From: Chlamydiia bacterium
GTDB taxonomy: Bacteria > Chlamydiota > Chlamydiia > Chlamydiales > Rhabdochlamydiaceae
Assembly (NCBI GenBank): GCA_963804085.1
Contig: CAWDOQ010000017.1
Coordinates: 64,001 to 128,000 of the forward strand
Length of the DNA stretch: 64,000 nucleotides
Direction: 5' to 3'
The notes below the pieces were generated by a model. The model worked only from the letters and a program-made list of their open reading frames with translations. It had not been told where the DNA came from and made no database searches. Below are positions 39,601 to 43,304 of the stretch, one piece after another. Every line of letters begins with the position of its first letter. The stretch's first letter is position 1. Position numbers and translations under genes: made by a program.

Positions 39601-40380
39601 ATGTTTATCGATTCTCATGCTCATCTTACCTCTTCAGAGATCCTTCCGGACGTAAAAGAGGTGCTCGCGCGTGCGCAAGCAGCAAACGTCACCAAGATCA
39701 TCAACATCTGCACCGATGAGCTGACTTTAGAGAAGGGGCTTGAGCTGAGCGAGCAGTATGATTGGGTGTATAATACGGCAGCCACAACACCGCACGATGT
39801 GGAAAAGGAGGGAGAGAGCTTCTTTCCTATTGTCGAGAAGTGCGCCAAAGAAAAAAAGCTGGTTGCGATCGGCGAGACCGGCTTAGATTACCATTACGAG
39901 CACTCCCCCAAAAAAATGCAGCAGAAGTTTCTAGAGCGCTACTTGCAGCTTGCGCTTGATTGCAACCTTCCGGTTGTAATCCACTGCCGAGACGCTTTTG
40001 CTGACCTTTTTAGCATTGCAGATGCCACATACAAAAAAGAGGCGCTGCTCCTGCACTGTTTTACCGGAACACTCGAGGAGGCAAAAGAGGCGTTAAAAAG
40101 AGGCTGGAGTATCTCCTTGAGCGGCATCGTCACATTCAAGAAGTCGGAGAGCTTGCGCGAAGTGGCCCGCTACCTTCCACTAGATCGCATTCTCATCGAA
40201 ACAGACGCGCCCTATCTTGCCCCGCACAGCCAGCGCGGCAAGAAAAACGAACCCGCCTTCCTTCCAGAAACCGCTACCCTCATCGCCTCCCTCCGCAATA
40301 TCCCTCTCCCTGCTGTGGCTGAAGCCACCACCCGCAATACTGCTCGCTTTTTTTCTTTAAGTGGACAGAAGACCCCTTAG
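39601..40380 (+). CDS. tatD: TatD-family deoxyribonuclease
   Basis: DSHAHL, AIGETGLDY, IHCRDA, HCF, ETDAPYL. Confidence 0.93.
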   Translation: MFIDSHAHLTSSEILPDVKEVLARAQAANVTKIINICTDELTLEKGLELSEQYDWVYNTAATTPHDVEKEGESFFPIVEKCAKEKKLVAIGETGLDYHYEHSPKKMQQKFLERYLQLALDCNLPVVIHCRDAFADLFSIADATYKKEALLLHCFTGTLEEAKEALKRGWSISLSGIVTFKKSESLREVARYLPLDRILIETDAPYLAPHSQRGKKNEPAFLPETATLIASLRNIPLPAVAEATTRNTARFFSLSGQKTP

Positions 40381-40538
40381 TGGACGAGGTGGACAGAGTG
40401 GACAAAAGATTTGTGGACGAAGTGGACGGGGATCTCCTCCGACTCTTCTTCTTGGCGCTGTCCACTTAGTCCACATCGTCCACCAAGTCCACTAAAGTCC
40501 ACCCTCTTCGCGCCTGTCCACTTTGTCCGTTGGGGCCC
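40361..40538. repeat. GTGGAC/GTCCAC inverted tandem-unit element D
   Basis: Near reverse-complement of 52378-52529; overlaps the tatD stop. Confidence 0.85.
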
Positions 40539-40699
40539 TCTTTCTTAATTCATTTGCGTCTCCGCGACCCTGCGTCTTTCCCCTGAAAATTTCTAGGTTT
40601 TGTGACATGGGGGTAGCCTTGTTGTAGCAATCCTTCTTTCCCAATTATTTTATTGGACAGGCTCTACTCCCTTCCACTCAAGATCGTCCTTTAATCCAA

Positions 40700-40835
40700 T
40701 TTGCGTGTCAGTTAAGAAAAGCAAGCTTTCCCCTACGTGTTCACCAGCTGTGCTGGGACGACAATCTATTGTACTTACACTGACAGATCAGTTTGCGTTG
40801 CGGGGTAATCCACCACTAAGACGTCGATCTTTTGC
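40700..40835 (-). ncRNA. Putative IS110 bridge/seek RNA (target- and donor-binding loops)
   Basis: Hand-folded stem-loops whose internal loops match the target halves (CGTCTT, TTTGCGTT) and the donor end (TTTCCCCT). Confidence 0.7.
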
Positions 40836-40883
40836 AAATGTTTTAATTTCTCTCCCTTGATCGGACTATTGGTTGTTCTTTTT

Positions 40884-42113
40884 TTAGGCTATCTTCTTAG
40901 TGACCTGTACCTGGTATCCCAATTCTTCTAGCCGCTTGGCATGATATTTGGCTTTTCGCTCTGGCTCTAGCTTGTCTAGAAAATCAACGCCTATTTCGTG
41001 GAACGGGATATTATCCTTAAGCATGTGGAAACACACGACGAGAGTTTTGCGCCCGATGGCTATAATAGATCTCTGTTTTCCTCTCCGGAGTGCTAGAGCG
41101 CGATACTTAGCTCCTAAGTAAGTGTTTTTTGTACGCGATACTGCCCATGCGACCTGGGTCATTGTTACCTTCAGGTGCCTGTTGCCCTTTCTGATACGCG
41201 AGGATTTGATCTTCCCCGCGCTTTGGTTATTTCCTGGACATAATCCTGCCCAGGCCGAAAGGTGGGCGGCACTTCTAAACTGACTCATGTCGACTCCTAA
41301 TTCAGCTATTAAGGAGGCTGCGGCTAGGTCTTTTACACCAGGAATTGTTTTTAAAAGTTCTACCTGCGCCTGATAGGGGATCAATTGTTTTTGAATCTGT
41401 TTGTCAATCTGCTCAATAATAGCTTCAATGGCTGTGATATGATCCATCATCATCCGTAATATCTTGCGGTCTTCTTCTGCAAGGGTGCCTTTTAGAGCCT
41501 TTTCAATTTCCAGCCTAGGCGCTTGGCACTTCCCGTGAACATAGTCCATTAGTACTTCCATTCTCGTTTCTCCTGCAACAAGCTTGCAGATCATACCCCA
41601 TGCTGTAACACCGAAAACATCTGAAAATACAGAGGAAAGCTTGATGTTGGCGTTCTCTAGCATTTTAATGATCCGATTTTTAGCGCTCGAAAGGTCTCTG
41701 GTTAGCGTTTGTCTATACCTAACAACCTCTCTTAATCGGACGATCTCTCTCGGTGGAATAAAACTTTTGCTAAGTAGCCCACATTTCAAAAGCTTGCATA
41801 ACCATTCACTATCTTTAACATCGGTCTTTCTTCCGGGGACATTTTTCACATGTTGCGCATTCACCAAAACAACATCAAAATCGCCTTCAAATACATTAAA
41901 AATCGGCTTCCAGTAAATTCCTGTACTCTCGACGGCAACATGGTGGATATCAAGCGATTTTAACCAGTTTGCCAGTTCCTGAATGTCTTGTGTAAAAGTG
42001 AGGAATGTTTTGATTGTCTTGCGCTTTTGAGTTCCATTGCCTATCATTACGCACGCAGTTATGGAATCTCTATGTACATCTAATCCGCAGCATCTTTCGA
42101 ATACTTCTTCCAT
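40884..42113 (-). CDS. IS110-family recombinase/transposase
   Basis: GLDVH, VESTGIYW, KTDVKD (DEDD RuvC), TIPGV, AWAGLCP..NQSAGK catalytic Ser. Confidence 0.97.
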   Translation of the reverse strand: MEEVFERCCGLDVHRDSITACVMIGNGTQKRKTIKTFLTFTQDIQELANWLKSLDIHHVAVESTGIYWKPIFNVFEGDFDVVLVNAQHVKNVPGRKTDVKDSEWLCKLLKCGLLSKSFIPPREIVRLREVVRYRQTLTRDLSSAKNRIIKMLENANIKLSSVFSDVFGVTAWGMICKLVAGETRMEVLMDYVHGKCQAPRLEIEKALKGTLAEEDRKILRMMMDHITAIEAIIEQIDKQIQKQLIPYQAQVELLKTIPGVKDLAAASLIAELGVDMSQFRSAAHLSAWAGLCPGNNQSAGKIKSSRIRKGNRHLKVTMTQVAWAVSRTKNTYLGAKYRALALRRGKQRSIIAIGRKTLVVCFHMLKDNIPFHEIGVDFLDKLEPERKAKYHAKRLEELGYQVQVTKKIA

Positions 42114-42365
42114 GGCTCATATCTCCTATATTTAAGATTGTAGGGTTGTCGAAAGACAACACCACGTAAAGAGTATGAGTCATGGGTTTTTTTTAAACCG
42201 AGACTAAATTTTCATCGATTATTGTGAGCCCAGAGCTCATCGGGGTTTGCGTTAATCTTCAAGAAAAACGCAAAGACGCAGGGTCGCGGAGACGCAATAA
42301 AAATTTTTTAGCATAATAAATATGGTGTTTCCATTTTCAGATATTAATGCTATAATTTTTGCTCT

Positions 42366-43304
42366 ATGACACAAGCAATAGGTTTAAATCCTACAATTAA
42401 TACTTTACCTCCGGCACAAGAAAAGCCCTGCTTGGATGCGCTTTTCGAGCGCATTCAAGCGATCTGGAATGCGATTTGCGCCTGGATCTCTTCTCTAGCT
42501 GAGCGTCTTTTTCCGCCAGAAGTGCTTAAACAGCTGACTATAGCAGATAGCTCGCCTGACTCTTTTCGTTTGGTGATGCGCTATCTCTACCCGGAAGAGG
42601 TGGCTCGATGCGAACCGGTCTGTAAATCTTGGAAGGCGAACATCATCGAAAAGGTATGGGAGATGCAATGCCAGCAAGAAGGAGTCGAGCTGGAAGAAAA
42701 TTATAAGTGCAAAGCGGGGCAGTACAAAGAGGCGTTTAAAACCCCCGAGCCAATCCGAGCCTTTGGAGCGACAGAGTGGAAACAGTATTTTGGAGATCCA
42801 GGCGTTGCCCCGCGCCTTCCCGTCAGCATCTACCGCACCTTTAAAAAGTTAGAAGTGACACACACTCTTACTCTCATCCCCGCAACGGTAAATGGGAAGC
42901 CGCTTACCTTAAACACCTTTGCTTCATTTACACCCGTGCGGACGATGGAGTTGCGCATGGTGCCAGGTATTCGAAAAACATTAGGGGATGAGCCTGTAGA
43001 GAAATCTCTTTGGGTCTGGTTGCAAAAAGATTTTGTGCCAGAGACTGGAGGAAAGTCGCAGGAAGAAGCAGAGAAGAGTTATCGGCTTGGAAAAACGCTT
43101 TGGATCGTTGTCAGCATCTTTGCTCATTACACCCGTTGGGATCAGCGTCCCTTAGACTCGGATGACTTCATCGCTATGATGCAAGAGAAGAATCCTGAAA
43201 GCGGTGCGCCTGCAGCTGTTTCTTGTTCTGATGATGGTGTATTGGTATTCTTTGCCACGAAAAACCATGCCGATACACGGGTGGCTAATGCGTTTCCCGC
43301 ATAA
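42366..43304 (+). CDS. F-box-containing candidate effector
   Basis: PDSFRLVMRYLYPEEVARCEPVCKSWK F-box; amphipathic N-terminal helix. Confidence 0.75.
   Translation: MTQAIGLNPTINTLPPAQEKPCLDALFERIQAIWNAICAWISSLAERLFPPEVLKQLTIADSSPDSFRLVMRYLYPEEVARCEPVCKSWKANIIEKVWEMQCQQEGVELEENYKCKAGQYKEAFKTPEPIRAFGATEWKQYFGDPGVAPRLPVSIYRTFKKLEVTHTLTLIPATVNGKPLTLNTFASFTPVRTMELRMVPGIRKTLGDEPVEKSLWVWLQKDFVPETGGKSQEEAEKSYRLGKTLWIVVSIFAHYTRWDQRPLDSDDFIAMMQEKNPESGAPAAVSCSDDGVLVFFATKNHADTRVANAFPA

Follow-up and report, generated by a model that had tools for sequence, protein, structure and literature searches.

An IS110-family insertion sequence in one arm of a host palindrome of a Chlamydiia bacterium, very probably placed there by a guide RNA encoded downstream of its transposase gene

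Background

That members of the IS110 family of insertion sequences (ISs) target palindromic intergenic repeats is reportedly long established, Choi (2003) and Tobes and Pareja (2006) being the names attached to it. The present analysis concerns such an IS, which interrupts a palindrome in the genome of a Chlamydiia bacterium of the Rhabdochlamydiaceae (GenBank assembly GCA_963804085.1), within a stretch of 64,000 nt of contig CAWDOQ010000017.1 (positions 64,001 to 128,000; hereafter the window, in which position 1 is the first letter). The element is intact and was very probably placed in one arm of a hairpin-forming repeat by a guide RNA that it encodes itself and that matches a 12-nt site.

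In IS621, segments in the loops of the RNA pair with the bottom strand over 8-9 nt and with the top strand over 4-7 nt, while the RNAs of the IS1111 group are predicted to lie in the right end (PMC11208160). For IS1111-type elements, the seekRNA follows the transposase gene, and its top-strand match is located 5' of the bottom-strand match (PMC11187229). The same source gives transposase sizes of 330-350 aa for IS1111 and 395-455 aa for the IS110 subgroup, and describes one IS110 subgroup with a downstream noncoding region.

Results

Excision of positions 40580-42248 (i.e. 1669 bp, including one copy of a 3-nt core; 40577-42245 are equivalent coordinates) from the window leaves two 31-bp arms that form a perfect inverted repeat, separated by a 13-nt spacer (42254-42266). 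The 26 nt at 40554-40579 are 100% complementary to 42272-42297 (repeat search, pair I2), and when they are joined to 42249-42253 a 31-nt arm results, the reverse complement of which is exactly 42267-42297. Because a perfect 31-bp complement appears only once one exact block is removed, chance can be ruled out. The trinucleotide TTT is present at 40577-40579 and again at 42246-42248, and is the only duplication at the junctions. The initial annotation, made from the sequence, was therefore right about the restored palindrome with its 13-nt spacer and about TTT at both junctions, as well as about a second, oppositely oriented copy of the target in the intact arm, which was located at 42267-42278 on the plus strand. 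In the orientation of the IS (core set off by slashes) the left junction reads TTAACGC/AAA/CCCCGATGAG and the right junction TTTCAGGGG/AAA/GACGCAGGG. Among relatives (loci L006, L007 and L038-L043; BLAST, MAFFT), homology ends at the same IS ends plus a few flank bases.

The very ends of the element, which read AAACCCCGATG.. and ..TTTTCAGGGG, are without terminal inverted repeats. There is a 9-bp subterminal inverted repeat, TGAAAATTT, of which 7 bp are kept in relatives and which is asymmetric in its placement, being 5 nt from one end versus 35 nt from the other; at this position the left end of relatives reads ATGAAAAT. The family consensus of the right end is TTTTCAG-RRRK/AAA. Close to the left end, a small hairpin is kept through compensatory changes (GAGC..GCTC, GAAC..GTTC, CCGAC..GTCGG) and is followed by CACAA(T/A); it could be a protein site or the end of a transcript.

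The one long open reading frame (ORF) of the insert, 42113..40884, encodes a protein with matches to PF01548 (E 3.7e-27, residues 9-155) and PF02371 (E 1.5e-23, residues 252-337), and scores 277.6 bits, versus a cut-off of 140, against the NCBIfam model NF033542 ("IS110 family RNA-guided transposase"). When aligned by phmmer to the IS621 transposase (PDB 8wt6; E 1.4e-16), residues D12, E62, D98, D101 and S298 match the catalytic D/E/D/D/S, and all five are invariant across 30 homologues (65-91% identity, all of ~409 aa). The serine motif, of which the family form is G(L)xPxxxxS, reads GLCPGNNQSAG, so that the serine is followed by Ala-Gly and not by Gly. The insert is thus an intact IS110-family element with a DEDD/Ser transposase. 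Among annotated proteins it is closest to "IS110 family transposases" of 381-410 aa on Bacillus and Streptomycetaceae plasmids (42-49% identity), and its 409 aa lie outside the 330-350 aa of the IS1111 group, a comparison made by length and closest annotated relatives.

Seen in the orientation of the IS, the noncoding parts measure 135 nt on the 5' side and 304 nt on the 3' side. The latter holds a block that is conserved among relatives and that encodes a structured RNA, located between the stop codon of the transposase gene and the right IS end, on the same strand as the gene. In the RNAalifold prediction for six sequences, AUUUGC/GCAAAU form the closing helix and UGUCAGU/ACUGACA a second, long-range one, with hairpins in addition. 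A covariance model, R1, made from a trimmed alignment of 6 sequences in which only the trusted helices were retained, detects the RNA in 44 of the 74 sources searched; all matches are on the transposase strand and just 3' of the gene, and the RNA of the window is the top-scoring one (182 bits). In the R1 alignment (40 distinct rows) 92.8% of the cells are paired and 20 of the 30 pairs change on both sides. None of 500 shuffles reached any of five pairing measures, and sliding the partner strands by 1-3 columns made pairing fall to 32-43%. An extra 5-bp helix that closes the target loop (GAUCG/UGAUC; elsewhere GGUCG/UGACC) is 92% paired. G-U pairs, which fit only the sense strand, are frequent (e.g. 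UG in 38 and GU in 36 of the 40 distinct rows). A Rfam scan of 40000-43000 on both strands gave no match at E <= 1, and a promoter and terminator scan of the minus strand found no consensus promoter for either the RNA or the gene, with counts equal to those of shuffles.

The RNA is laid out as one arm with two target guides and a second arm (helix P2) with a donor guide. The left target guide is on the 3' side and the right one on the 5' side of an internal loop that an invariant hairpin caps, and the donor guide lies on the 3' side of the loop of the second arm. As judged from its sequence, the left target guide, AACGCAAAC, would pair with the bottom strand. When the left guide of each locus was searched for as its 5 nt plus AAA, an exact match was found at the expected upstream distance in 22 of 44 loci (7 loci had less than 200 nt of upstream sequence for this search), and in 20 of these 22 the match is followed by the left-end consensus AAA/CACCCATG; with the guides of other loci as a control, 22 matches were obtained in 1,144 tests. 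Of 42 loci, 31 have a right end that their donor guide (4 nt) plus AAA matches, with 8 guide variants and always after TTTTCA(G), compared to 16 matches in 294 control tests, and the donor segment tracks the right end through GGGG, GAGG and GAAG variants. For the right guide the signal is weaker but clear: a longest stretch of at least 6 nt is shared with the right flank in 8 of 28 distinct own pairs versus 13 of 730 cross pairs (mean shared stretch 4.46 versus 3.20), the value for the window being 6.

Individual loci illustrate this co-variation. L039/L006 combine the guide CAUCGCAAAC with the flank CATCGC/AAA/C, and L042 combines CGGGAAAU with ATCGGG/AAA/T. In L040 the left guide AUAGGAAAC goes with the flank GGATAGG/AAA/C and the right guide UUGAAUU with the flank AATTCAA (junction AAA/TTCAAG); L040 is a naturally retargeted copy, both target guides having changed to fit its flanks. 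A "handshake" base following the core in the donor guide was also considered, and was dropped as by eye it shows no consistent match to the first flank base across the family.

The 12-nt target, AACGCAAAGACG, is present at 8 intact sites in the genome, versus 0.25 expected from composition, and at 49 sites with at most one mismatch. All 8 intact sites are unoccupied (the one in the intact arm of the window included) and all fall in the arm family of the octamer GCGNCNNN, which has 19 arms in the genome versus 1 in a reversed-sequence control, with two further full palindromes at C2:336084 and C17:17110. The target motif is over-represented as well in relatives of the same order for which this query detected no transposase (17 in G032, 9 in G039, 5 in G022 and 4 in G024, versus 0-1, also given as 0-3, in the reversed-pattern control), and lies there in octamer repeats of the ACGCAAAG type. 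Because the target is enriched in relatives without a found transposase, the repeat belongs to the hosts and not to the IS. What is read would be the 12-nt motif recognised by the IS-encoded RNA, and not the palindrome as such.

The draft genome (2.13 Mb, 24 contigs) holds one copy of the IS. A search of 40 relatives of the same family or order found only genes of 35-38% identity, in one genome, and no transposase in the other 39. A scan of genome contigs with a single-protein query gave no relative, and among plasmids blastn found nothing that matches the IS. In the protein database there are many proteins of 65-99% identity, mostly on contigs of about the length of the IS, and with alignment-based scans 32 loci were recovered on genome contigs and another 80 on metagenome contigs. 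The named relatives of the IS come from Chlamydiota metagenome-assembled genomes. In the relatives with the same guide segments (L038, L006, L039/L007 and L043; 71-89% transposase identity) the left junction is (A/T)CGC/AAA, and the right junction is AAA/GACGC in L006 and L039/L007 and AAA/GGAGC in L043; L039 sits in a palindrome of the same octamer repeat. L040, on a metagenome contig (IS at ~318-2135; 80% identical), is inserted in unrelated sequence, i.e. GGATAGG/AAA/.../AAA/TTCAAGCCC.

The IS is also present, with 99-100% identity, in four soil-metagenome runs from a single study. The X2 contig with the right end enters a different flank ending in ...GCGTCTTT, and the one with the left end continues with GCGTT and then different sequence; X4 has a third flank at the IS end, the junction pattern of the two being ...GCGTCTTT/IS and IS/GCGTT... 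The right-hand flank of X2 and the flank of X4 are absent from the host assembly at up to 4 mismatches, and the left-hand flank of X2 is present at C10:62752 and C10:62339, adjoining an unoccupied site with one mismatch. As the soil runs may include the source sample of the genome, these would be other sites within the population and not independent lineages. All seven distinct sites (window, L038, L006, L039/L007, L043, X2 and X4, some of them one-sided) are at ..CGC/AAA/G.. of the same repeat type. The coordinates of the features in the window are collected in Table 1.

Table 1. Features of the insertion and its surroundings (positions in the window)
Feature	Position	Strand	Remark
Host, outer 26 nt of the interrupted arm	40554..40579		last 3 nt (40577-40579, TTT) are one core copy
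IS110-family insertion sequence	40580..42248	-	1669 bp with one core copy; homology of relatives stops at these ends
Right-end copy of the 9-bp subterminal inverted repeat, TGAAAATTT	40584..40592		5-13 nt from the IS end
Bridge/seekRNA-like noncoding RNA	40699..40839	-	~141 nt between P1 strands; covariance-model match 40689-40844
Donor guide, RNA AGGGGAAAG	40726..40734	-	last 5 nt of right IS end + core AAA + first right-flank base
Left target guide, RNA AACGCAAAC	40791..40799	-	5 nt of left flank + core AAA + first IS base
Right target guide, RNA CGUCUU	40818..40823	-	complement of top-strand AAGACG (last 2 core bases + 4 right-flank bases)
Transposase/recombinase gene	40884..42113	-	409 aa; PF01548 + PF02371, catalytic residues
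Left-end copy of the 9-bp inverted repeat, AAATTTTCA	42206..42214		35-43 nt from the IS end
Small left-end hairpin, GAGC-N5-GCUC	42226..42238	-	8-20 nt inside the left end; read by eye
Host, remainder of the palindrome	42249..42297		inner 5 nt of the arm (GCGTT, 42249-42253), spacer 42254-42266, intact arm 42267-42297

The surroundings of the insertion are rich in other repeats. Directly upstream of the GCG-type palindrome, at 40355-40553, lies a second and far more abundant palindromic repeat, made up of 9-nt GTGGACNNN / GTCCACNNN units, of which the genome holds ~25 or more copies of 130-190 nt (73-88% identity, blastn). Downstream of the palindrome is an ORF of 312 aa (42366-43304, plus strand), preceded by a sigma-70-like promoter with 10 of 12 consensus positions at 42328-42356; it has no Pfam match and belongs to a family with more than 20 paralogous copies in the genome (38-50% identity, tblastn). 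A paralogue of this intergenic region is found at C2:46400-46560 on the reverse strand, with GTCCAC repeats, the same spacer and the same promoter-like stretch, after which comes a gene paralogous to that of 312 aa; of the palindrome it has a single GCG-type arm, the 12-nt target of which is intact, and it lacks both the IS and a second arm. Yet another repeat (TTTGCATTCCTTC..AAAG, a short hairpin ATATCNGC..GCAGATAT, then GCTTTGCGG) regularly adjoins the GCG-type arm, as at C10:62339-62860, C13:30306, C19:195961, C2:172346 and C8:30672, and its context is shared by the insertion sites of X2 and X4. On C10, two inverted copies of it flank a 384-nt stretch in which long hairpins abound and which resembles a miniature mobile element.

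Comparison with described systems

The element resembles IS621 (PMC11208160) in having a recombinase with DEDD and Ser that belongs to the same Pfam families, in its site-specific entry into a repeated palindromic host element with duplication of a short core only, and in a structured RNA with two predicted guide-bearing loops, each of which has a long bottom-strand segment (9 nt here versus 8-9 nt), the target loop also having a short top-strand segment (6 nt here versus 4-7 nt), with the core within the pairings. It differs from IS621 in that the RNA is located in the right end, 3' of the gene, rather than in the left end; in that the short top-strand guide lies 5' of the long bottom-strand guide, which is the reverse of the order in IS621; and in the core, which is AAA (3 nt) instead of CT (PMC11208160). 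Moreover, the transposases are only distantly alike (409 versus 328 aa, E 1.4e-16), and no fourth (right-donor) guide was found here.

With ISEc11, ISPa11 and ISKpn4, which are of the IS1111 type (PMC11187229), the element shares the long noncoding region downstream of the gene. Further likenesses to this type (PMC11187229) are a top-strand match 5' of the bottom-strand match, the two overlapping in the target, natural retargeting among close relatives (ISEc11/ISXne4), and perhaps the 9-bp subterminal inverted repeat, such repeats measuring 7-17 bp in the IS1111 group. On the other hand, the 409-aa protein is in the size class of the IS110 subgroup (395-455 aa), and the 9-bp inverted repeat is asymmetric (5-13 versus 35-43 nt from the ends), both unlike the IS1111 type; compared to that source (PMC11187229), a donor-matching RNA segment is evident here as well. 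From the IS110 group sensu stricto the element differs in that its RNA and long noncoding region are downstream, not upstream, of the gene. The element in the window is therefore one with an IS1111-like RNA position and guide order, and a protein of IS110 size.

As regards the choice of target, the closest parallel is with ISPpu9 and ISPpu10 of Pseudomonas putida, IS110-family elements that insert only in copies of one intergenic palindromic repeat (PMC12288879) and for which the left target likewise makes up the 3' side of a stem-loop of the target DNA (10.64898/2026.03.19.712850). Host and repeat are different here (GCGNCNNN octamers, ~19 arms).

L124, an IS110-family element on the B. thuringiensis plasmid NZ_CP074713.1 (641-2211) with a transposase of 49% identity, has the same kind of ends, starting on the left with AAA/CAATCATGA.. 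and ending on the right with ..TTTTCACAGA/AAA, and fits the same RNA model, albeit weakly (25 bits, E 2.9e-4). Its left guide AAAAUAAAC fits its own flank ..TTTAAAAT/AAA/C, and its right guide GCUUUUU fits its own flank AAAAAGC. In L124, however, the RNA is upstream of the gene (723-881; gene 901-2046), whereas it is downstream in the clade of the window. It seems that the RNA has switched ends within this transposase clade.

Discussion

The ends of the element, its gene family, the structure of its RNA and the co-variation between guides and flanks are observed directly in the data presented above. Judging by IS621 and the seekRNA elements of the IS1111 type, the RNA would be made, would bind the transposase and would direct recombination via a circular intermediate, and the element appears to work like the known bridge/seekRNA-guided IS110 elements, the mechanism of which is already well understood. 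Entry would have taken place at the host site AACGC-AAA-GACG (in IS orientation), by recombination with the joined IS ends ..CAGGGG-AAA-CCCCGATG.., with the crossover within the shared 3-nt core AAA. A crossover located there would account for TTT at the two junctions and for the lack of any other duplication. The site would be chosen by the ~141-nt RNA encoded 3' of the transposase gene, while the 9-nt segment in the loop of the second arm would match the right IS end and the core. The IS would have landed inside one arm of a palindrome because its target belongs to a low-copy GCGNCNNN octamer repeat that often forms hairpins, and the other arm still offers an identical target in the opposite orientation.

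The initial annotation had proposed that this IS uses a different intergenic repeat family as a safe harbour, and had suggested a comparison with other copies. This reading is supported, and both checks proposed with it are in its favour. The other copies with the same guides (L038, L006, L039/L007 and L043), together with the X2 and X4 contigs, lie in the same motif, and the palindrome does not travel with the IS, considering that L040 is found in unrelated sequence and that the repeat family and the target occur without the IS. The caveat is that the 12-nt motif, more than the palindrome, would be what is read. That the site is a safe harbour we infer from its intergenic position. A recent insertion, which was also suggested, is plausible, with gene and RNA intact, perfect arms and near-identical copies elsewhere.

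Several observations weigh against RNA-guided placement as outlined here. In the clade of the window, no segment was found that is complementary to the left IS end, i.e. the expected fourth guide; in the sister clade (L009 and L056-L061) a candidate exists in the form of CAUGGG before the 3' strand of P2, which could pair with CCCATG of the left end (seen by eye, without a control). The right guide is only 6 nt long, the site of L043 has 2 mismatches to it, and many distant loci show a right-guide match of only 3-4 nt. With respect to the RNA, the pair counts come from an alignment that was fitted to the R1 model, which favours the structure, while the six close relatives on their own give only 3 pairs that change on both sides, the fold of the single sequence is no better than that of shuffles (z -0.51), and no RNA run is listed among the sequencing runs that hold the IS. 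Finally, the soil-run contigs contain neither a contig spanning an empty site nor a circle-junction joint, although, these being contigs only, this says nothing either way on a circle, and there is a single IS copy despite 8 perfect empty targets, as would be expected if the element were at present little active, or inactive, in this genome.

The single copy and the lack of a circle-junction joint are also what one would expect from a stranded copy, intact in sequence and yet not transposing, e.g. because the RNA or a junction promoter is not expressed in this host, and the failure to find the IS in 39 of the 40 relatives searched points the same way. Nevertheless, this is rather improbable: the ORF is full-length with its catalytic residues kept, the RNA of the window scores highest of all matches, the copies of 99-100% identity with other flanks in the runs of the same study point to recent movement in the population, and a draft of 24 contigs may hide additional copies. 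Far less credible still is that the inverted repeats are part of the mobile unit, such that 40554-42297 would be a larger element with termini of 26-31 bp, or else the IS would have been captured by a miniature element with hairpin ends. The insert is indeed flanked by perfect inverted repeats of 26 nt, but the match extends to 31 bp only after an exact internal block has been removed, whereupon the arms are 13 nt apart, like those of a hairpin and not like termini. In addition, homology among relatives stops at 40580/42248 plus the short target, the same IS has other flanks in L040, X2 and X4, and the arm family is present 19 times without the IS. On the strength of the exact ends in relatives, the other flanks and the IS-free arms, the inverted repeats were rejected as termini of the element itself.

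A different matter is whether base pairing by the RNA suffices. The target hairpin could be a second, structural determinant that is read by the recombinase, so that RNA pairing would be necessary but insufficient, as has been proposed for ISPpu10, where, according to the preprint, a conserved 5' stem-loop is complementary to the left target and plays a functional part (10.64898/2026.03.19.712850). In line with this, the left flank in the window reads, in IS orientation, GCGTT-N13-AACGC/AAA, directly 5' of the core, and the same geometry is seen in L038 and the X2 contig and, more weakly, in L039 and L043 (by eye). The available flanks of the retargeted L040 and of L006, however, are without such a complement, and at least 4 of the 8 intact host targets have, by eye, no partner arm within the ~70 nt shown, a point that would count only if those sites are usable. 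Since the repeat family is palindromic anyway, the geometry may well be a by-product, and a structural role for the hairpin is considered a tentative option, appreciably less probable than placement by the guide RNA through the 12-nt motif.

Conclusions

This locus provides a fully resolved natural insertion, very probably RNA-guided, for which the ends are exact, the empty site is reconstructible, and three guides and a retargeted sibling are available. The RNA family is not in Rfam 15, and a model of 6 sequences recovers 44 sources and, weakly, a cultured Bacillus plasmid. For annotation purposes, the 12-nt motif AACGCAAAGACG predicts possible landing sites of this IS, and for genome engineering the element is another orthologue, with a 3-nt core. 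Possibly, though this is the less probable outcome, it exemplifies a third layout of RNA-guided IS110 elements, in which a transposase of ~380-410 aa is combined with top-strand-first guides and an AAA core, the donor is read by one RNA segment together with an asymmetric inverted repeat read by the protein, the RNA gene has moved from the left to the right end with the motifs of the termini kept, and the target hairpin may act as a structural gate. The current picture of the mechanism of IS110 elements is unchanged by these results. Two features are nonetheless worth noting, namely the RNA position and guide order in a clade with proteins of IS110 size, and the possible move of the RNA between ends, which suggests that the place of the RNA within the element can vary among members of one transposase clade.

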